From positions 91,683-155,682 of the forward strand of contig CAWJHU010000003.1 of assembly GCA_963842815.1 (NCBI GenBank): a stretch of DNA of 64,000 nt, read 5' to 3'. Positions 2,279 to 63,188 of this stretch are shown here, piece after piece. The translations under genes were made by a program, and so were the position numbers. The notes below the pieces were generated by a model. The model saw only the letters and a list, made by a program, of their open reading frames with translations. It was not told the origin of the DNA and did not search any database. The DNA is from Candidatus Nomurabacteria bacterium (GTDB taxonomy: Bacteria; Patescibacteriota; Minisyncoccia; Phycocordibacterales; UBA9973). Numbering within the stretch: the stretch's first letter is position 1; every line of letters starts with the position of its first letter.

Positions 2279-6420
<4,142 letters not shown>

Positions 6421-11553: not shown

Positions 11554-12249
11554 TTATAAATTTCTAAATTCCTCTATGGTTTCAATTATATCATCCGTTT
11601 TAAAAATCGCTGAGCCGATAATAAGGCGAGTGGCGCCCGCGCTTACTAGCGCGGGCGCATTTTCAAAATCTATTCCCCCATCCACGGATATTTCAAGGTC
11701 GGGAAATTTTTCTTTCAGTATTTTTATATCCTCAAAGACTTTTTCATTAAATTCTTGCCCCTGAAAACCAACTTTGTCTATACCCATACATTGCACAAAA
11801 TCAACATCATTAATTAAAGGAAAAATTTGTTCCAGAGAAGTTTCTATATTAAGAGCTATGCCTATTTGTATCATTTCTCTCACATATATATCCATGCCCT
11901 CCAAAAAATTTTTAAATTCTTTCAAATCACCTACCGCTTCAATGTGAAAAACTATTCTTTTTGCCCCGAGCTTAGAATAAATATCAAAATTTTCTACCGC
12001 ATCGGACACCATCAGGTCAAGCTCAAAATCAATATCTTCCCAAAAAGGCATTCCCTCTTCCTCGTTTAAAATTCTATGAAAATTATAATCATTAATTCCT
12101 TCCGTAGAAAAAGGCCAAGTCTTGGACGGCACAAAAATCCCGTCGCAAATATCTATTTGCACAATGGGAACTACTCCGCGCACCAGCGCTATTTTATTTT
12201 TTAAATCTTCGTAATTTTTCGGCAATATTGCTGGAATTATTTCAGCCAT
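11554..12249 (-). CDS. rpe: Ribulose-phosphate 3-epimerase-like (TIM-barrel sugar-phosphate epimerase)
   Basis: IIPAILPKNYEDL...IVQIDICDGIFVPSKTWP resembles the Rpe hhDvMDG.FVPN motif. C-terminal DGGI...LVSAGATRLIIGSAIFK. Sits in the operon with rpiB, tkt and gap. Confidence 0.55.
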   Translation of the reverse strand: MAEIIPAILPKNYEDLKNKIALVRGVVPIVQIDICDGIFVPSKTWPFSTEGINDYNFHRILNEEEGMPFWEDIDFELDLMVSDAVENFDIYSKLGAKRIVFHIEAVGDLKEFKNFLEGMDIYVREMIQIGIALNIETSLEQIFPLINDVDFVQCMGIDKVGFQGQEFNEKVFEDIKILKEKFPDLEISVDGGIDFENAPALVSAGATRLIIGSAIFKTDDIIETIEEFRNL

Positions 12250-17793: not shown

Positions 17794-17846
17794 CACCTCT
17801 CCCCAACCCCTCTCCTTATTAAGGAGAGGGGTGAAGGGGTGAGGTC
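17794..17846. repeat. GC-rich imperfect palindrome (~52 bp) in the divergent pth/lepB intergenic region
   Basis: tcacctctccccaacccctctcctta|ttaaggagaggggtgaaggggtgaggtc. The central 12+12 bp pair perfectly and the outer arms imperfectly. GC-rich island in AT-rich DNA. Confidence 0.5.
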
Positions 17847-18502: not shown

Positions 18503-19804
18503 ATGAAAACAAAAACTATAAAAACCAAGACGAAGAACCTATCATCCCCCAAAGGAATGAGAGATATTATTAATGAAGAATATTATAGTTTTCAGGGATT
18601 TTTTGAAAAAGCTCAGGAGGTAGCCGTTTATTACGGTTTCAAACCCATTGAAACTCCCATGCTGGAACATGCGGAAGTTTTTACTTCAGGCATTGGCGAA
18701 GGAACGGATATCATAGACAAAGAAATGTATACTCTCAAAACCAAAGGCGGAGACCATTTGGCTCTAAGACCGGAACATACTGCGTCGCTTATGCGCTCTT
18801 ACATTGAACATGGAATGCAGAATATGCCTCAGCCTGTAATGTTTTATCAATATGGTCCGGCTTTTAGGCATGACAATCCTCAACGCGGACGTTACAGACA
18901 ATTTTGGCAATTTGACTTGGATTCTTTGGGAAGCGACAAAAGCATTGTGGACGCGTTGGTAATAAAAGTCGGCATGAGCATTTTGGAAGATGCCGGAGCT
19001 GTCAATTTGTCCGTAGATATCAATTCCATAGGCGACAAAGAATGCCGGCACTCATATATAAAAGAACTTACCAGTTATTACAGAAAACACATAAATGACT
19101 TAGCTCATGTTGACCGTGAACGCTTGAAAACAAATCCCCTTCGCATTCTGGATTCCAAAGAGGAAAAAACAATGGCAGTGAATGAAAATGCCCCGGATTC
19201 CATAAGTTTCCTCTGCCCTGCTTGCAAAAAGCATTTTAAGGAAGTTCTGGAATATTTGGAAGAAATGAATATTCCCTACAATATTAATAAAAATCTGGTG
19301 CGAGGACTTTCCTATTACACCCGCACTGTTTTTGAAGTGGTTGAAGAGAGCGGAGCAGAAGACGGAACCCCTCTCACCATCGCCGGAGGCGGACGTTATG
19401 ATTATCTTGCCCGCCAACTGGGCAGCAAAAAAGATGTTCCGGCAGTCGGCTTTTCAATCGGCGTAGACAGAATTATTGCATCTCCTTGGTATAAAAAGCT
19501 TTCGCCTCGCATAATGAAAAAACCGAAAATGTATTTTATCCAGCTCGGTTCCGAAGCAAAATTGAAAAGCTTGAATATAATAGAAATATTGCGCAAAGCG
19601 CATGTGCCCATTGCCCAGTCAATTTCCAAAGACAGCTTGGGTTCCCAGCTGGCCATTGCTGAAAAGCTGGGTGTTCCATACGCGCTTATTTTCGGAGTAA
19701 AAGAAGCAATAGAAGATTCGGTAATTGTCCGGGATATGTCCAATAGGTCCCAGGAAACCGTGAAATTAAGCAAGCTATTGGAATATCTAAAGGAGATAAA
19801 ATGA
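18503..19804 (+). CDS. hisS: Histidyl-tRNA synthetase
   Basis: KGMRDII..., class II motif 2 FRHDNPQRGRYRQFWQFD, motif 3 region GGGRYDYL. Start set at the Met after the lepB stop. Confidence 0.85.
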   Translation: MKTKTIKTKTKNLSSPKGMRDIINEEYYSFQGFFEKAQEVAVYYGFKPIETPMLEHAEVFTSGIGEGTDIIDKEMYTLKTKGGDHLALRPEHTASLMRSYIEHGMQNMPQPVMFYQYGPAFRHDNPQRGRYRQFWQFDLDSLGSDKSIVDALVIKVGMSILEDAGAVNLSVDINSIGDKECRHSYIKELTSYYRKHINDLAHVDRERLKTNPLRILDSKEEKTMAVNENAPDSISFLCPACKKHFKEVLEYLEEMNIPYNINKNLVRGLSYYTRTVFEVVEESGAEDGTPLTIAGGGRYDYLARQLGSKKDVPAVGFSIGVDRIIASPWYKKLSPRIMKKPKMYFIQLGSEAKLKSLNIIEILRKAHVPIAQSISKDSLGSQLAIAEKLGVPYALIFGVKEAIEDSVIVRDMSNRSQETVKLSKLLEYLKEIK

Positions 19805-20340
19805 AAAAAATAGTTCAAAAAGAAGACAGAGTTCTGCGCCAGAACACAAAAGACATCCCCGTGAGTGAAATTGCCAAGCCCAAAATACAAAAAATACTGA
19901 AAGAAATGTCTTCGGCATTAAAAAAACAAAGCGACGGAGTAGCTTTGGCGGCACCTCAAATAGGATATAAATTATCTATTTTTGTGGTTTCCGGAAAAAT
20001 TTTTCATAAAGATTTTATCAGCGGAGAAAAGGAATTTGAAAAAATACCAAATAAGGAAGTTCCCAAAGATTTGGTTTTTATCAACCCGAAAATTTCTAAA
20101 TTATCTCGAGAAAAAGAATGGCTCATGGAAGGATGCCTTTCCGTCAGATGGCTTTATGGAAAAACCTATAGGTCAAAAAAGGCTATGATTACAGCCTATG
20201 ATGAAAACGGAAAAAAATTCCAAAGAGGAGCTTCCGGTCTTTTGGCTCAAATTTTTCAGCATGAAACAGACCACCTGAAAGGGGTACTTTTCATAGACCA
20301 CGCCAAAGAAATTAGGGAGGAGCTACCTAAGCAAATTTAA
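19801..20340 (+). CDS. def: Peptide deformylase
   Basis: The three PDF motifs: GVALAAPQIG, EGCLSV, QHETDHLKG. The start overlaps the hisS stop (ATGA). Confidence 0.85.
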   Translation: MKKIVQKEDRVLRQNTKDIPVSEIAKPKIQKILKEMSSALKKQSDGVALAAPQIGYKLSIFVVSGKIFHKDFISGEKEFEKIPNKEVPKDLVFINPKISKLSREKEWLMEGCLSVRWLYGKTYRSKKAMITAYDENGKKFQRGASGLLAQIFQHETDHLKGVLFIDHAKEIREELPKQI

Positions 20341-21027
20341 TTTGAAATAATTAATCAGAGAAATCCCTTTCTCGTCTATTTTTAGATTTATCTGCCAATT
20401 TTCAAGGCCCCTGGAAATGGATTTTTTTACTATATTGGTTATTCTTTTATCCGGGTTTTCCGGAACTTTAAATTTTTCCGCATTATATAAATAGCATAAA
20501 AGCATTATCGCCCTTTGGCCTTTTTTAATTTGACTGGATGTATCATAAAAATGTCTGCCCAATCTTTCAAAGGAATTAAATTTGGCATTATTTTTTTTAC
20601 TGCCAAAGGGAAGAAGCATTAGCGGAGTTTTTACTTCCAAAAAGCAATTATCGTTTATCAGAAAATCTATTCTGGAATTATTAAGTTTTACTTCCCTCTT
20701 CAGTTTTTTTACTTTAATCATTTCGGGCAGAAGATTATTTTTTAGAAAAAATTCAAGGTAGCCGTTGGCTTTTGTTTGGTTTATACCAACCCACAGTTTG
20801 GGCAACGGTGAAATTGCCTCCACGGTATAGTTGGTTTTCCTCTTTGGGTTTTCTGATTTTGAAAGCAAACAGGGAATATTTTTGAATTCCATGTTTCCGA
20901 TTCTTCCGGTGGAAGGACAATGGCATTTTTCCAATTTGCCGTTAATTTTTACGAACATTATGAACCTATTGGGCCTGGATTTTATCAGCCCGGGAATTAA
21001 TTTTCCTTCAAAAAGATATTTTTTCAT
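20323..21027 (-). CDS. sfsA: SfsA-family protein (sugar fermentation stimulation protein A-like nuclease/DNA-binding)
   Basis: N-terminus GKLIPGLIKSRPNRFIMFVKINGKLEKCHCPSTGRIG...KRKTNYTVEAI parallels the SfsA R.NRF..V...G....HCPNTG....KRK..Y motif pattern. Length of 234 aa fits. Confidence 0.5.
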   Translation of the reverse strand: MKKYLFEGKLIPGLIKSRPNRFIMFVKINGKLEKCHCPSTGRIGNMEFKNIPCLLSKSENPKRKTNYTVEAISPLPKLWVGINQTKANGYLEFFLKNNLLPEMIKVKKLKREVKLNNSRIDFLINDNCFLEVKTPLMLLPFGSKKNNAKFNSFERLGRHFYDTSSQIKKGQRAIMLLCYLYNAEKFKVPENPDKRITNIVKKSISRGLENWQINLKIDEKGISLINYFKLNLLR

Positions 21028-21096
21028 ATGACAATAAATTGTATGTTATGTGAACTTTATGATAACATTAAATGATTCCTAAATGCCAACATAAAC

Positions 21097-21963
21097 ATGA
21101 AAAACATCTCAAAAGAAAAATTGAATTTCGTATTTTGGGGAACGCCGGATGTGGCCTCTGAGACTTTAGAAATATTAAAGGAAAATGGCTATTTGCCGTC
21201 GCTTATTATTACTTCGCCTGATAAACCACAGGGACGCAAAATGCTCATTACTCCCCCGCCGGTAAAAGTTTGGGCGATGAAAAACAAGATTCCATATTTG
21301 CAACCGGAAGATTTGACGTTCCCCTGTCCCTGGGTCAGGGGAGAATCCCCTGACCCAGGGACAGGGGAACAAAATATTCCCGAGCTCTTCCTGGTTGTCG
21401 CCTACGGAAAAATAATTCCGGAAGATATTATAAATCTACCCAAATTTGGTTCTATTAATATTCATTATTCCCTTCTGCCCAAATATCGCGGAGCTTCGCC
21501 GGTGGAATCAGTTATTTTAAATGGAGATAAAGAAACAGGTATTAGCATCCAAAAAATGGAATATAAAATGGACACCGGTCCGATCATTGCCCAAGAAAAA
21601 GTAGAAATGGGGCCAGACGAAAAAGCTCCCGAATTGCGCAAGCGTTTGATAAAAATCGGCGGAGAGCTTTTGGTAAAAACTTTGCCTAATTTTATAGATG
21701 GAAAAATCAAACTGATTTCACAAAATGAGAACGAGGCAACCTATTGCAAAAAAATTAAAAAAGAAGATGGGCTAGTTAACTTGGAGACCGAGTCGCCAAG
21801 CGTTCTATATAATAAATTCCGCGCCTATGCCGCTTGGCCCAGAACTTTCTTTTTCAAGGATGGCAAAAGAATAATCATCACTGACGCTGTGCTGGAAAAT
21901 AATCAATTTGTAATAAAAAAAATCATCCCCGAAGGCGGAAAAGAAATAAATTATAGAAATTAG
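21097..21963 (+). CDS. fmt: Methionyl-tRNA formyltransferase, carrying an in-frame 47-bp palindromic insertion
   Basis: FVFWGTPDVASETLEIL, VVAYGKIIPEDIINLPKFGSINIHYSLLPKYRGASPVESVILNGDKETGISIQKM. The extra segment FPCPWVRGESPDPGTGE between YLQPE and VVAYG is encoded by the palindrome at 21321-21367. Confidence 0.85.
   Translation: MKNISKEKLNFVFWGTPDVASETLEILKENGYLPSLIITSPDKPQGRKMLITPPPVKVWAMKNKIPYLQPEDLTFPCPWVRGESPDPGTGEQNIPELFLVVAYGKIIPEDIINLPKFGSINIHYSLLPKYRGASPVESVILNGDKETGISIQKMEYKMDTGPIIAQEKVEMGPDEKAPELRKRLIKIGGELLVKTLPNFIDGKIKLISQNENEATYCKKIKKEDGLVNLETESPSVLYNKFRAYAAWPRTFFFKDGKRIIITDAVLENNQFVIKKIIPEGGKEINYRN
21321..21367. repeat. Perfect 22-bp inverted repeat with a 3-nt spacer (47 bp, GC-rich), embedded in frame in fmt
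   Basis: cccctgtccctgggtcagggga gaa tcccctgacccagggacagggg. The right arm is the exact reverse complement of the left arm. Confidence 0.9.
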
Positions 21964-22358
21964 TATTTGGCTGTAAAAGGATTTCTTCTGGAAAGGCCTT
22001 TCATCATTTTTTTGACACTGGAAGCTCCGCGTTTGAATAATGTCTGTCTGCGGTCTTTGTTTTTCCTGATTTCATTAAAAAGGCTTTCTTTTATTTCATC
22101 AATGGCCTGATACAGGTCTTCCTTATCGGAACTGGCATAAAATTCTTTCCCATCTATTTTAATCAGGCAATCCGAATGAAAAACAGCGCCGGTTTTGTGA
22201 TGCTTGGTGCTTTTCCCAACTTCAAAATTAACCAGCACTTCCCCTCCTCCGGCTTCCATGGTGGAAAGCAATTTTTCCAGATTAGTAACCCTTTTGGAAA
22301 CATAATCTTTAATGGCTTCAGTCAGCTCAAAATTTTTTCCCTGTAAATTTATTTTCAT
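21960..22358 (-). CDS. hpf: Ribosome hibernation-promoting factor / RaiA (S30AE family)
   Basis: MKINLQGKNFELTEAIKDYVSKRVTNLEKLL...VNFEVGKSTKHHKTGAVFHSDCLIKIDGKEFYASS...LYQAIDEIKESL. Confidence 0.8.
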   Translation of the reverse strand: MKINLQGKNFELTEAIKDYVSKRVTNLEKLLSTMEAGGGEVLVNFEVGKSTKHHKTGAVFHSDCLIKIDGKEFYASSDKEDLYQAIDEIKESLFNEIRKNKDRRQTLFKRGASSVKKMMKGLSRRNPFTAKY

Positions 22359-22403
22359 GTTTCTATTCTATCATGGAATAACTTTTATGAAATCTGGATT
22401 AAT

Positions 22404-24335
22404 TTAATATTTCATGCCGTGAATAAGAGCCTTTAAAAGAATATCCAGTTTCATGGTTGCCACACCCACGACCTTGTCTGCCCCGCCGTAATAAATATAA
22501 AGCAAGCTGTCTTTTAGAACCATACCGCAGGGAAATACAACATTATTCACAACTCCGCTTTTTTCATATTCTTCCACCGGTTCAAAAATCGGGTCGCTGC
22601 TACGAGCTAAAACAATGGCGGGGTCTTTCAAATCTAGCAAAACGCATCCGATGCGATAGGTATTATGGCTCTTGGATACGCCGTGGTAAAGCAAGAACCA
22701 GCCGTATTTGGTTTTAAGGGGCGGAGCGGAAATGCCGACTTTGGCGCTGTCCCAGGTGTTTATGCGGGGTCCGATAATTCTTATGCATTTTTTCACCATT
22801 TCATGCTTGAAATCCAAAGTGGACAAATAATCGCCGCAAATTTCATTGCCCACTCGATGCAAGATAAAATAACCCAGTGGGAATTTTTGAGGGAAAAGAC
22901 AGGTGTCTTTATCATCCAAACCCTGCGGAGTGATGAGAAATGGTTTTTCCCATTTCCAATTTTGAGAAATAAAATCTTTTTCCGAGATGGATGAAATGGC
23001 CACCCGGGGAGGTCCGATGCTGTCAAAGGCCGTGTAGCATACATATATGTTTTTGCCGATTTTTGTCAAACGCGGGTCTTCGCATCCGGAATTCTGATTA
23101 TTTATTTTTTTATTTTCAAATTCTTCCCGAGGCACATAGACGGGTAAAGATAGCCGTTCAATTATATCCACTCCGTTTTTGGTCATGGCATAGCCGAAAG
23201 TAGACGTATTGTCCTGGGACATGGCCCGATAGACGATATGCGTTTTCCCATTCAGAAAAATGGCTGCCGGATTAAAGGTCGCTTTTTCTTCCCATTTATT
23301 TTCTTTTTTAGGAAGAATAATCGGATTCTTGGGAGAACGCTTGAAGCTGAAATTATCTTTATATTTATAGTGCATGCTGAAAATAAGGTCATTTAAATTG
23401 ACTTTGGCAAAACATACGGTAGTGTCCGCCGCGCCATAGTATATGGCAAGAATATCTTTTTCAACCAGAGCGCCGGTGGGAAAAACTATATTCCCCACAT
23501 AGCCGGACAGCTCGTAAAATTCTTCCGGCACAATAATAGGTCCACCGGTTCGGCCGATTATTTTTTGCAAATCTTTTGAATCAAATAAAACCGCCTCAAT
23601 GCCGAAAATCCTGTCGGGGTTGCCGTCTGACGGAAAATAATTTTGAATGTGAGAATAAATAAACAGCCAGCCATATTTGGTTTTAATGGGCGGAGCTCCG
23701 ACTTCTATATGGTCGTAGGGGGAACGTTTTAAATCAATGGTGCAATTATCAACATTCTTCTCCCATTTTTCCCAAAACGACGGCGACCATAATTCTTCAA
23801 TCCTATCCAATTCGGCAATAACAATTTTGGCCGGAGGAGAATCGGTGTGATAGGAAAAGATAACTACAATTTTCCCATTTATCCGCTCCGGAAAAAGAGT
23901 CATAGCTTTGGCATTGAAAGGAGTAACCAGGTGCCGTTCATCAATCTTTTTTAAATTTTTAGAGAGAGCCACGGCCACCCTTATGCCGTCCGAACTGAAC
24001 GGATATTTTGAAAGCGCTGTATAAAAAGTGTAAAAAGTCCCTTCAAAATATGTTATTCTCGGGTCTTCACAGCCGAATTTTTCCCATTCTTCCTTGGGAA
24101 CTATAAAAGGGGTACGGTCTTCAAAAAGCGCGCCGTCTTTGCTTTTACCTATGCCGATGGTGGAAATTTGACGGGGATTTTGCAATTTATCTTCCGCTGA
24201 GATAGCGCGATAAACTCCAAAAAATGTTTTGCCATATTTGACCGGGCAAAGATTAAAACTGGCAAATTTTTCCCAATAATGGTCTCCGTCGGGAATCAAT
24301 ATTGGATTGTGTTCCGATTTTTTAACAACAAACAT
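22404..24335 (-). CDS. Tandem GH130-like (DUF377 / beta-mannoside phosphorylase-like) glycosidase, two domains
   Basis: Two copies of the GH130 pattern: NPAAI..G..HIVYRA, GCEDPR(I/L)T, YGW(L/F)L(I/L)YHGV, YYG(A/G)AD. 643 aa. Confidence 0.65.
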   Translation of the reverse strand: MFVVKKSEHNPILIPDGDHYWEKFASFNLCPVKYGKTFFGVYRAISAEDKLQNPRQISTIGIGKSKDGALFEDRTPFIVPKEEWEKFGCEDPRITYFEGTFYTFYTALSKYPFSSDGIRVAVALSKNLKKIDERHLVTPFNAKAMTLFPERINGKIVVIFSYHTDSPPAKIVIAELDRIEELWSPSFWEKWEKNVDNCTIDLKRSPYDHIEVGAPPIKTKYGWLFIYSHIQNYFPSDGNPDRIFGIEAVLFDSKDLQKIIGRTGGPIIVPEEFYELSGYVGNIVFPTGALVEKDILAIYYGAADTTVCFAKVNLNDLIFSMHYKYKDNFSFKRSPKNPIILPKKENKWEEKATFNPAAIFLNGKTHIVYRAMSQDNTSTFGYAMTKNGVDIIERLSLPVYVPREEFENKKINNQNSGCEDPRLTKIGKNIYVCYTAFDSIGPPRVAISSISEKDFISQNWKWEKPFLITPQGLDDKDTCLFPQKFPLGYFILHRVGNEICGDYLSTLDFKHEMVKKCIRIIGPRINTWDSAKVGISAPPLKTKYGWFLLYHGVSKSHNTYRIGCVLLDLKDPAIVLARSSDPIFEPVEEYEKSGVVNNVVFPCGMVLKDSLLYIYYGGADKVVGVATMKLDILLKALIHGMKY

Positions 24336-38643: not shown

Positions 38644-38897
38644 ATAAATTTATTATAACAAAATTATAGACAAAGTTAAATTAACCAAAAGGCATTATGG
38701 TCTATTGTTTTTTGCTCATTTTCTGTTAAGATGATAAAAGTTCTTTATTTAATTAAATACATTCCGGGGTAGTTGAAATGCGTCTAAAAAGCATTTCAAG
38801 GGCGGAGGCACGAAGGTGCCGAGCCGGGGTCGCGAGATTTTTCAGCAGAAAAATATTTGTGACCAGCGGTTACCGCTGAGCTATCCCGAATAAATAT

Positions 38898-47555: not shown

Positions 47556-47629
47556 GCACTCTTAGCTCAGTTGGTTAGAGCGTGCGATTCACATTCGCAA
47601 GGTCGTAGGTTCGATTCCTACAGGGTGCA
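47556..47629 (+). tRNA. tRNA-Val (anticodon CAC)
   Basis: Acceptor GCACTCT/AGGGTGC. D-arm GCTC-AGTTGGTTA-GAGC. Anticodon arm TGCGA-TTCACAT-TCGCA. T-arm GTAGG-TTCGATT-CCTAC. Starts 3 nt after the preceding tRNA. Confidence 0.8.
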
Positions 47630-47660
47630 CAAAAATGCTTTAGCATTTTTGTGCACCCTG
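47618..47660. repeat. Perfect 18-bp inverted repeat whose left arm is the 3' end of tRNA-Val
   Basis: cagggtgcacaaaaatgc-tttagc-gcatttttgtgcaccctg. The arms are exact reverse complements. Confidence 0.8.
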
Positions 47661-47724
47661 TCAGGGCCTATAGTAAAGTGGTATTACGCGGCATTCGCAT
47701 TGCCGAGGCGCGAGTCCGATTCTC
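47654..47724 (+). tRNA. tRNA-Ala (anticodon CGC)
   Basis: Acceptor GGGCCTA/TAGGTCC (G3:U70). D-arm GTAA-AGTGGTA-TTAC. Anticodon arm CGGCA-TTCGCAT-TGCCG. T-arm GCGAG-TCCGATT-CTCGC. Confidence 0.75.
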
Positions 47725-47825
47725 GCTAGGTCCACAGCTTGACTTTTATTGTATATATGATATACTTTCTTTGGATTTAAATAGAAAATAATGTTTGTTC
47801 ATTCCACTAATATAAGGAGACGCAA

Positions 47826-62156: not shown

Positions 62157-62176
62157 ATCTACGCCATGGCGTAGAT
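62157..62176. repeat. Perfect 20-bp palindrome just 3' of the Cas2-like gene
   Basis: atctacgccatggcgtagat (self-complementary; CCATGG core). Confidence 0.85.
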
Positions 62177-62188
62177 TGGTCTATATAA

Positions 62189-62557
62189 TTAGGATTTTTC
62201 TAGATAAGATTTAGCTAACTTAAATGTTTTAAATTCTTTTTGTAGACCAATTCTCTTTAAGTAATCTAAAAAATCTTTCGGCAATGGTGAAGGACCAACC
62301 CAGACACTTTTTTGAATCATAATAAAATCAAAATTTTTGAGTTGACGACGAAACCAGTCTCTTTCCTTCTTCTTCACATGGGGAATATCATACATAAGAA
62401 GTAAATTTTTTGGTGCATCTTTTTGAAAATTAGAGATAAAAGAACGGAGATATTGACATTTAATAATTTTTTCTTTTTTCTCAGAATAATTAAAGTTTGG
62501 TAAACCTAAAAGATTTACGGATACACCTTTGTATTTTAATTTTTTTCTGGTAACCAT
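62189..62557 (-). CDS. Cas2-like fold protein (orphan; no cas1 or array in the window)
   Basis: NLLLMYDIPHVKKKERDWFRRQLKNFDFIMIQKSVWVGP follows the Cas2 pattern hhhhYD(I/V)......+R..hR+.L...G.+hQ.SV(F/W).. with the conserved Asp in beta1. A 45-aa N-terminal extension is atypical. Confidence 0.35.
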   Translation of the reverse strand: MVTRKKLKYKGVSVNLLGLPNFNYSEKKEKIIKCQYLRSFISNFQKDAPKNLLLMYDIPHVKKKERDWFRRQLKNFDFIMIQKSVWVGPSPLPKDFLDYLKRIGLQKEFKTFKLAKSYLEKS

Positions 62558-62570
62558 AATTTATATTATA

Positions 62571-62594
62571 CACTAAAAACATATCTACGCCATG
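62571..62594. repeat. Related imperfect palindrome just 5' of the Cas2-like gene
   Basis: atatctacgccatggctgagatat. Shares the 14-nt core atctacgccatggc with the downstream copy. Confidence 0.8.
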
Positions 62595-63188
62595 GCTGAG
62601 ATATGTTTTTGATTTTAAATAAAAAACTGCTGGCACTAATAAATATAGTACGCAGCAGTTAGATAATACAGGGTGGAAAAACTAGAAAGAGAAGAAACGG
62701 TCGGCAGAGCTACCTTATTCCTTCTTTATGTTTCTACTAGGAACCACAAGGGATCGAACCTCATCTTTTCCACTGTATATATAATATTACATACAGAGAC
62801 GAGCTAGGAAACACCACAGAGGTCTTAACCACATGGGGAAACCCCCTCTGAGATACACCCAAAATTAAAAGGTGTGGGTAATTTTAAGGTCAGCCGTTGA
62901 AACCCTTATTAGCCTCAACGATGCCTAAGTTTGTGTTGGCTCTCTATCCACCCAAATATATTCTTAACTTTACAAATTCTAAGATAGAGATTAATACTAA
63001 TCACCTAATTAGTCAATATTAGTCAAAGTAGTTCTTCAGCCGGGCAATTTTTTCGTGCTGGCGAAGTTTTTCGTGCACTTTGGCTTCAATCTGGCGAATG
63101 CGTTCGCGGGTCACTCCGAATTCTTCCCCCACCCTTTCCAGAGTATGTTGAATACCGTCCACCAACCCATAACGCATTTCCAGATATT

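Follow-up and report, generated by a model that had tools for sequence, protein, structure and literature searches.

A perfect palindrome read in frame within fmt of a Candidatus Nomurabacteria genome, probably a compact doublet of a REP-like hairpin

Repetitive extragenic palindromic (REP) sequences that form inverted doublets, known as REPINs, are mobilised by REP-associated tyrosine transposases (RAYTs) and occur in extragenic space (Bertels and Rainey 2011, PMC3116915; PMC3337134). Intragenic REPs are a documented minority: several species have them within genes, dimers or groups that encode 20-30 residues making up more than half of the inserts, and tight dimers with spacers of 1-2 bp are present in Opitutus terrae (Di Nocera et al. 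2013, PMC3733652). According to the same work, the Rickettsia palindromic elements (RPEs) RPE-4 and RPE-6 of R. conorii correspond to CGTC-tagged REPs with no known dedicated transposase, and the REP-bearing phyla given are Proteobacteria, Cyanobacteria, Chloroflexi, PVC, Chlorobi, Bacteroidetes, Spirochaetes and Thermotogae, the candidate phyla radiation (CPR) not being among them (PMC3733652). Work on REP/REPIN-RAYT systems has dealt almost entirely with Proteobacteria, and a literature search on REP, RAYT or REPIN combined with Patescibacteria, Parcubacteria or CPR found no linking paper. We studied a stretch of 64,000 nucleotides from a Candidatus Nomurabacteria genome (contig CAWJHU010000003.1, here called the window), in which fmt, the gene for methionyl-tRNA formyltransferase, contains a perfect GC-rich palindrome. 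We read this palindrome, with a probability of roughly 0.6, as an inverted doublet of a 23-nt REP-like hairpin, i.e., a compact REPIN-like element whose family is linked to RAYT-like genes in related genomes and which lies in a permissive loop of Fmt.

The palindrome was 53 bp long and consisted of two 25-nt arms, 100% complementary to each other, on either side of a 3-nt spacer (Table 1). An earlier note on this DNA had described the 22-nt arms at 21321-21367, which proved to be the core of a larger inverted repeat. The GC content of the palindrome was 0.66, against 0.365 in the surrounding 2 kb, and the order of its parts from left to right was GAC-GT, TCCCC...GGGGA, GAA, TCCCC...GGGGA, AC-AAAA. 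Each arm was itself a near-palindrome, TCCCCTG-T-CCC-T-GGG-T-CAGGGGA, able to pair with itself at 10 of 12 positions, and the element can be folded in two ways, into a single long hairpin or into a pair of 23-nt mini-hairpins. Its geometry is that of two copies of one small hairpin in opposite orientation, and the symmetry is perfect because the two units are identical. Folding of positions 21300-21390 gave a minimum free energy (MFE) of -63.3 kcal/mol as RNA (z = -9.68) and of -36.7 kcal/mol as DNA (z = -9.53), in both cases with 0/200 shuffles as stable, and the palindrome was an extreme fold-energy outlier among the 62 GC-rich islands of the window.

The host gene was well defined: the ORF matched Pfam Formyl_trans_N (E = 1.8e-31) and Formyl_trans_C (E = 5.2e-07) as well as solved Fmt structures in the PDB, with E values down to 1e-46, and the residues N121, H123 and D159 of the catalytic region stood in invariant alignment columns. 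As the earlier note had proposed, the palindrome is read in frame, giving residues F75-E91, FPCPWVRGESPDPGTGE, between YLQPEDLT and QNIPELFLVVAYG; peptides diagnostic of the hairpin region would be, for instance, ...LTFPCPWVR or GESPDPGTGEQNIPELF... The doublet lies in the linker between strands beta3 (YLQP) and beta4 (LVVAYG) of the N-terminal domain. In an AlphaFold2 model with a mean predicted local distance difference test (pLDDT) score of 80.7, residues 75-96 scored below 50 (except residue 79) and residues 75-98 had no secondary structure, the remainder outside the loop being confident, so that the inserted peptide, whose location the note had wanted checked, is predicted to be a disordered loop. 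The element would most likely be transcribed and translated straight through, yielding a Pro/Gly-rich disordered loop of 17 residues, and would survive by virtue of a stop-free frame and a permissive loop. Since the native helix segment has been lost, the net gain compared with native linkers and with solved Fmt structures amounts to only about 8-9 residues.

Other units of the same family occur outside the window. A scan of 978 kb of related loci (numbered here L001, L002 and so on) for hairpins of the form TCCCC-N9-17-GGGGA gave 32 near-perfect matches; the share of the window was exactly its two arms, and the others included fmt doublets of L001, L029, L031 and L037/L039 as well as intergenic single units. 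Among these matches, the ones of the fmt-doublet and RAYT-flanking type (see below) were without exception 23 nt long, TCCCC-N13-GGGGA, and the remaining matches mostly belonged to a 19-nt unit (class 3, see below). The window arm and the L001 arm were identical at 20/23 positions, one of the differences being a compensatory change from A-T to C-G. In an alignment of 18 units, 94.4% of the cells were paired, and changes on both sides of the stem occurred in 6/11 stem pairs (34 cells); the covariation score was 0.487 against 0.167 in shuffles and was reached by 0/500 of them, and in slid registers of the alignment pairing fell to 30-54%.

The link of this family with transposase genes comes from the relatives. 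The arm of the fmt palindrome in L003, CCACATGTC[A/T]GACATGTGG, was found twice in L074, mutually inverted and 20/20 identical, bracketing a truncated transposase gene. Full-length homologues of this gene (L007, L037/L039, L016) matched Pfam Y1_Tnp above its gathering score, and their best NCBIfam match was the REP-associated tyrosine transposase (E = 5e-11 to 6e-10). Taken together, the RAYT-like proteins scored 28-38 bits with Y1_Tnp (cut-off 23) and E = 1e-9 to 1e-13 with the NCBIfam model, and carried the motifs YHxYNRG, HUH (NHFH) and YIHxNP. The protein family comprised 329 relatives at E <= 1e-10, of which all those named by source belonged to Patescibacteria and one had been named RayT by JGI. 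Inverted units of the same hairpin family flanked RAYT-like genes in L089 and L090, and sister hairpin types did so in L087, L074, L088, L007 and L039. L089 had 3 units in 20 kb, TTTCCCCTAAGTC-C/G-GACTTAGGGGAAA on either side of the gene and once more at a distance of 2.6 kb; this hairpin agreed with the fmt arm of L029 at 21/23 positions. In L090, TTCCCCGAAGA-AGG-TCTTCGGGGAA occurred twice, the first copy splitting the RAYT gene just past the HUH motif and the second lying downstream. The flanking hairpin of L087, TTTTCCGGAAACC-T/A-GGTTTCCGGAAAA, had the core AACCTGGTT of the L001 fmt arm, and that of L088, AAAGACGGAAGC-CTT-GCTTCCGTCTTT, was of the same type as an in-frame doublet in the glyceraldehyde-3-phosphate dehydrogenase (GAPDH) gene of L074. 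The REP flanking the L007 transposase was adjoined by GTAG. These HUH/Y1 transposases of the IS200 type are the presumed mobilisers, which would act on the hairpin in single-stranded DNA, and mobility of the window sequence itself would follow by analogy with its family. RAYT-like genes split by a REP hairpin right after the HUH motif were seen in at least two genomes, L074 and L090 (Table 1), where the splitting hairpins differ in sequence but share the position; many RAYT-like homologues of 122-157 aa may represent the same split form.

Set beside the known systems, the window element resembles REP/REPIN-RAYT in that its unit is a short imperfect palindrome (23 nt) of which two inverted copies form one long hairpin, and in that, as in REPs, the stems co-vary and the termini stay conserved; the inverted copies of one hairpin family around HUH/Y1 genes of the IS200 superfamily in relatives recall the REPtron layout. 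Unlike REPs and REPINs, which are mostly extragenic, it lies wholly inside the ORF of an essential gene and in frame, its doublet has a spacer of only 3 nt, perfect arms and no GTAG tag, and the transposases of the relatives are distant from the curated RAYT model. With RPEs it shares the condition of a selfish palindromic repeat in frame, at a permissive position, in a housekeeping gene of a small, AT-rich, reduced genome. RPEs, whose primary description is reportedly that of Ogata et al. in 2000, include RPE-1 of about 100-150 bp, longer than the short REP-type RPE-4 and RPE-6. The window element, a 53-bp doublet of 23-nt units, is set apart from RPE-1 by size, and from the CGTC-tagged RPE-4 and RPE-6 it differs in having no CGTC and in the link of its family to RAYT-like genes. 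Like the intragenic GTAG/CGTC REPs (PMC3733652), for which tolerance by flexible loops has been proposed and which occupy more than one site in some genes, it resides in a protein gene, but it is untagged and belongs to a single codon-level hot spot with serial replacement and nesting of several families. The earlier note's analogy with a mobile RPE-like hairpin was therefore apt, since relatives have related elements at further sites and in further genes, and units of the same hairpin family flank RAYT-like genes, although the closest comparators are REP/REPIN-RAYT systems together with intragenic REP dimers (PMC3733652) and not RPEs specifically; the observation is confirmed and its interpretation partly supported.

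We then compared the linker among orthologues, using the DNA of 80 further fmt loci from metagenomes and several more obtained by exact-protein look-ups, and extracted the segment from YLQP to VVAYG in 78 loci. The closest Fmt proteins (70-81% identity) came from organisms named Nomurabacteria, Paceibacterota or Parcubacteria, in agreement with the CPR-type genome suspected in the note. The alignment was near-invariant on both sides of this segment and hypervariable in length and sequence within it, with linkers of 15 to 47 aa that fell into five classes. Class 1 (25/78 loci) comprised native, AT-rich linkers of 15-22 aa (GC mostly 0.2-0.4), e.g. EKLDEEFxxKLxxxSYDLF, most of them without a hairpin. 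Class 2 comprised segments of 25-30 aa with perfect palindromes (arms of 18-26 nt, spacers of 1-3 nt), represented by eight sequences (window, L001, L031, L029, L037/L039, L025, L003-5 and L059/67/78) and one more in L083. Classes 3 and 4 contained elements of the types CCTCCCCCTTA.a.TAAGGGGGAGG and AAGGTCGGACCTT...AAGGTCCGACCTT, respectively, and class 5 consisted of long imperfect hairpins of 123-141 nt (MFE about -32 to -64 kcal/mol) in several subfamilies. The reading frame was kept in every variant. No orthologue shared the inserted peptide of the window, which is thus specific to its lineage as the note had supposed. Because the neighbour-joining tree of Fmt was star-like and cannot alone decide between repeated insertion and loss, we relied on nearest-neighbour identities with the linker masked: the closest loci had a long hairpin (L007, 86% protein identity), a different perfect palindrome (L003, 84.8%), another long hairpin (L010, 84.4%) and a native linker (L015, 82.5%), so that all states occur within one tight cluster.

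These independent loci also bear on the explanation that the palindrome is an artefact of assembly or amplification, e.g. a chimeric fold-back read. The exact window protein is known from a single cluster member on one contig, which speaks for an artefact; it is, however, recorded from three sources (ncbi, lgn and ena), the flanks carry on the fmt frame exactly, and identical copies of other palindromes came from three assemblies in the case of L003/L004/L005 and from two each for L037/L039 and L059/L067. With such palindromes, analogous or identical, at this codon-level site in many independent metagenome assemblies, we regard an artefact as very unlikely.

The earlier note had described the element as an insertion of about 16 residues. 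The frame is indeed intact, but a simple addition does not describe the locus, given the hypervariable site, the lost native helix and the nature of the right flank. This flank, encoding QNIPELF, aligned closely with GCAAAATATCCCAGAGCTCTTC of the class-5a element in L008, where that segment pairs with GAAGAGCTCTGGGATATTTTG, and had no counterpart in the native linkers of L015 and L016. It is thus a remnant of an older long hairpin whose 5' partner is missing in the window, which implies that the doublet replaced most of a long element instead of entering as a clean insertion of 16 aa; in the lineage of the window the part replaced would be the 5' arm and the core. The long hairpins have a 20-bp outer stem that varies by subfamily and conserved inner hairpins, GGCT-GACG-AGCC and AAATTTTC-AGCA-GAAAATT; the inner part occurred in either orientation, and def and an rsmE-like gene also carried it in frame. 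They had no match in Rfam, and a 'hammerhead-like' string noticed in them, CTGATGAG or CTGACGAG, was discarded as part of the small GGCT-GACG-AGCC hairpin. In two more distant orthologues, L083 and L084, the loop-1 region of Fmt, PDAKRGRGLQMQASPV, is encoded by a perfect palindrome of its own, GGGCGAGGCTTGCA.aa.TGCAAGCCTCGCCC (Table 1).

BLASTn searches with the fmt inserts in the whole of the retrieved DNA (916 kb), together with a separate scan for perfect palindromes, revealed the same kinds of element elsewhere. The class-3 element of L023 was identical (42/42) to one at a second fmt site in L010, a site also filled by class-3 elements in L070, L076, L057, L056 and L049, and a third fmt site was occupied in L052. 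Cores of the long elements lay in frame in def (L085, L076, L074, L049, L078) and in the rsmE-like gene (L052, L050), and L007 and L018 had the same inner element in opposite orientations. Perfect in-frame doublets were present in the GAPDH gene gap, in dnaE and in an unidentified 240-aa ORF (Table 1). The housekeeping genes that carry in-frame elements are therefore fmt (three sites), def, gap, dnaE and the rsmE-like gene, and in-frame palindromic elements are a general feature of the clade, not confined to one gene. A 20-nt match of the long L035 element to window positions 38837-38856, beside tRNA-Asn, was merely the small AGCA-loop hairpin motif.

A hairpin so stable, at a position conserved in many lineages and with its pairing preserved despite sequence turnover, might instead be a cis-acting structure under selection, in the fmt mRNA or DNA: a ribosome pause for folding of the N-terminal domain, a site of RNase processing or stabilisation, or a palindrome bound by a protein. 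The class-5a long hairpins fit such a role in being better conserved than the flanking coding sequence (82% vs 74%, higher in 96% of 55 pairs). Against this, about a third of the orthologues have the plain AT-rich linker of class 1, and elements of these types also turn up in intergenic DNA, in unrelated genes and elsewhere within fmt; the family is, moreover, associated with transposase genes. A scan of 20 element-bearing fmt loci against Rfam 15 yielded no more than five matches, each at chance level and under its gathering score. An intrinsic terminator was rejected as well: a scan of 19700-22500 for terminators did not report the element, the stem is followed by AACAAAATATTCC, and neither strand has a T tract. 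A selected regulatory hairpin is therefore unlikely, considering the orthologues without it, the unrelated contexts, the lack of an Rfam match and the missing terminator signature; the best reading is that the element is selfish or neutral DNA, its neutrality being presumed.

Several results weigh against the reading as a REPIN-like doublet. In the window the 22-nt arm at <=3 mismatches matched only its own two arms (in 100 shuffles it matched nothing), and no RAYT-like ORF was detected there by hmmsearch, nor any of the REP types known from relatives. Further copies of the arm, a part of the earlier proposal of a mobile hairpin, were likewise lacking elsewhere: the exact window unit had no second copy in the 978 kb of related loci, the exact or degenerate arm was absent from 185,579 species genomes (one per species, the source genome not included), and viral contigs gave no match. 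The single match among the species genomes was a chance self-complementary palindrome in a high-GC actinobacterium, a metagenome-assembled genome of Solirubrobacterales. A peptide search with four open-frame translations of the palindrome gave zero matches and also missed the Fmt of the window itself, and hence was uninformative. The doublet loci L039, L025 and L001 also had no further copies of their own units in flanks of 11-20 kb. Neither a GTAG nor a CGTC tag was present beside the window unit; the RAYT-like proteins matched NF047646 at 38-51 bits, under the curated NCBIfam cut-off of 80 bits, and neither a RAYT fragment nor a full-length homologue retrieved anything from the PDB in sequence searches. 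Translation straight through the hairpin, finally, is supposed from the universal conservation of the frame, and all eight doublet variants use one reading frame although a second is open in most of them, which is more readily explained by descent from a single old insertion than by repeated new ones.

Such descent is the core of another explanation, which we find doubtful although well worth weighing: an old, immobile insertion, vertically inherited, would have evolved in place, with no transposase acting today. During replication, intrastrand template switching (quasi-palindrome correction) would either transfer a mutation of one arm to the other or remove it, leaving every lineage with a perfect palindrome of its own. 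Each doublet lineage has a unique sequence, with perfect arms in most variants, and between lineages the inserts share only 61% identity, whereas the flanking fmt reaches 76%; L059, L067 and L078 (88-92% identity) have inherited one palindrome with a single new mismatch in L078, and resident units are without extra copies in flanks of 64, 20, 13 and 11 kb. It is the missing copies, the missing transposase and the shared frame that keep this explanation alive. It accounts poorly for the units beside RAYT-like genes and between genes in other genomes that match fmt arms at 21/23 positions, for the exact correspondence between the L003 arm and the hairpins around the L074 transposase remnant, and for identical elements at different fmt sites across genomes, as with site 1 of L023 and the second site of L010. 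Moreover, doublet alleles of fmt are interspersed with native and long-hairpin alleles whose proteins are 82-86% identical, so that vertical descent would need many independent losses. We therefore prefer the inverted REP-like doublet; in that case, too, the arms may have been kept perfect by intrastrand template switching.

The earlier note had also pointed to a GC-rich palindrome in the divergent spacer between pth and lepB as a possible divergent second copy. The palindrome is real, with an imperfect extension beyond its perfect arms (Table 1), but no similarity between it and the fmt element could be detected. Related versions, of the form CCCCTCTCC...GGAGAGGGG, were found in the same spacer of L017 and L019, L001 had a different palindrome there, and about 30/37 orthologous spacers lacked a comparable GC-rich palindrome; the pth-lepB palindrome belongs to a separate, patchily distributed family of palindromic elements. 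The GC palindrome within rpe, the gene for ribulose-phosphate 3-epimerase, was rejected as an insertion, being a normal conserved segment that encodes APALVSAGA.

Other features of the window were noted in passing. A minus-strand gene separates def from fmt, two genes that are adjacent in L001 and L003. A perfect palindrome between tRNA-Val and tRNA-Ala overlaps the 3' end of the former. The 20-mer ATCTACGCCATGGCGTAGAT occurs twice (the second copy with 2 mismatches) around a small minus-strand ORF, whose product contains ...MYDIPHVKKKERDWFRRQLKNFDFIMIQKSVWVGP... and looks Cas2- or PaaX-C-like by eye only; in L039, L037, L013, L023, L040 and L053 this 20-mer follows closely downstream of fmt. 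In a window otherwise of roughly 40% GC, one GC-rich stretch (0.55 GC in the 4001-6000 bin, islands of 0.60-0.67) has islands recurring at spacings of ~520 and ~620 bp, which suggests a long internal tandem repeat.

Table 1 Positions of the features described in the text; they refer to the window unless a locus is named
Feature	Position	Strand	Remarks
fmt (methionyl-tRNA formyltransferase), host of the element	21097..21963	+	288 aa; ORF, Pfam and PDB matches
Palindrome arm 1	21318..21342	+	arm of the 53-bp inverted repeat; holds REP-like unit 1, TCCCCTGTCCCTGGGTCAGGGGA (21320-21342)
Spacer between the inverted units	21343..21345	+	GAA, 3 nt
Palindrome arm 2	21346..21370	+	exact reverse complement of arm 1; holds REP-like unit 2, TCCCCTGACCCAGGGACAGGGGA (21346-21368)
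Remnant, 3' outer-stem arm of older ~123-nt hairpin	21371..21390	+	AAAATATTCCCGAGCTCTTC (right flank CAAAATATTCCCGAGCTCTTC); encodes QNIPELF; 5' partner missing
def	19801-20340		
Gene between def and fmt	20323-21027	-	234 aa
pth-lepB palindrome	17806-17832		13-nt perfect arms, ACCCCTCTCCTTA.T.TAAGGAGAGGGGT; imperfect extension to 17794-17846
GC palindrome in rpe	11633-11658		GCGCCCGCGC.ttacta.GCGCGGGCGC, 10-nt arms
tRNA-Val	47556-47630		
Palindrome between tRNA genes	47620-47661		20-nt arms, ACAGGGTGCACAAAAATGCT.tt.AGCATTTTTGTGCACCCTGT
tRNA-Ala	47664-47735		
20-mer ATCTACGCCATGGCGTAGAT, two copies	62157-62176; 62583-62602		
Small ORF between the 20-mers	~62199-62558	-	
GC-rich stretch	4242-5960		
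Long fmt-linker hairpins, ~123 nt	L008:2876-2998; L011:10208-10333; L007:10190-10315; L018:2866-2991; others		
Loop-1 palindromes in fmt	L083:10130-10159; L084:407-438		
In-frame doublet in gap	L074:1382-1430		23-nt arms
In-frame doublet in dnaE	L043:4674-4715		
In-frame doublet in 240-aa ORF	L041:2936-2969		
RAYT-like genes split after the HUH motif	L074:5675-6319; L090:9676-10372		

In-frame REP dimers and the RPEs of Rickettsia were already known. What is new here is the host phylum, an untagged TCCCC-N13-GGGGA family with distant RAYT-like partners, a perfect and tight doublet, and serial replacement at one codon-level hot spot. RAYT-like transposases, accompanied by a hairpin family of their own, exist in ultra-small, AT-rich CPR genomes, perfectly symmetric doublets of a RAYT-linked hairpin can reside in an essential gene, and one Fmt loop has been overwritten repeatedly by different palindromic elements among close relatives. 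We suggest, tentatively, that Patescibacteria may host their own REP-RAYT system, whose doublets and longer palindromes would be inserted routinely in frame in housekeeping genes and be nested or replaced at codon-level hot spots. If so, insertion would be targeted to hairpins, new elements landing in the hairpins of old ones, and such elements would be a significant source of lineage-specific peptide insertions in CPR proteins. Odd Pro/Gly-rich segments in annotated CPR housekeeping proteins may accordingly be repeat-derived, which calls for caution in annotation. The fmt loci offer a natural series in which to study the entry and exit of selfish hairpins in coding sequence, the persistence of long perfect palindromes in genomes with reduced repair, and the share of mobile DNA in the insertion load of CPR proteins.

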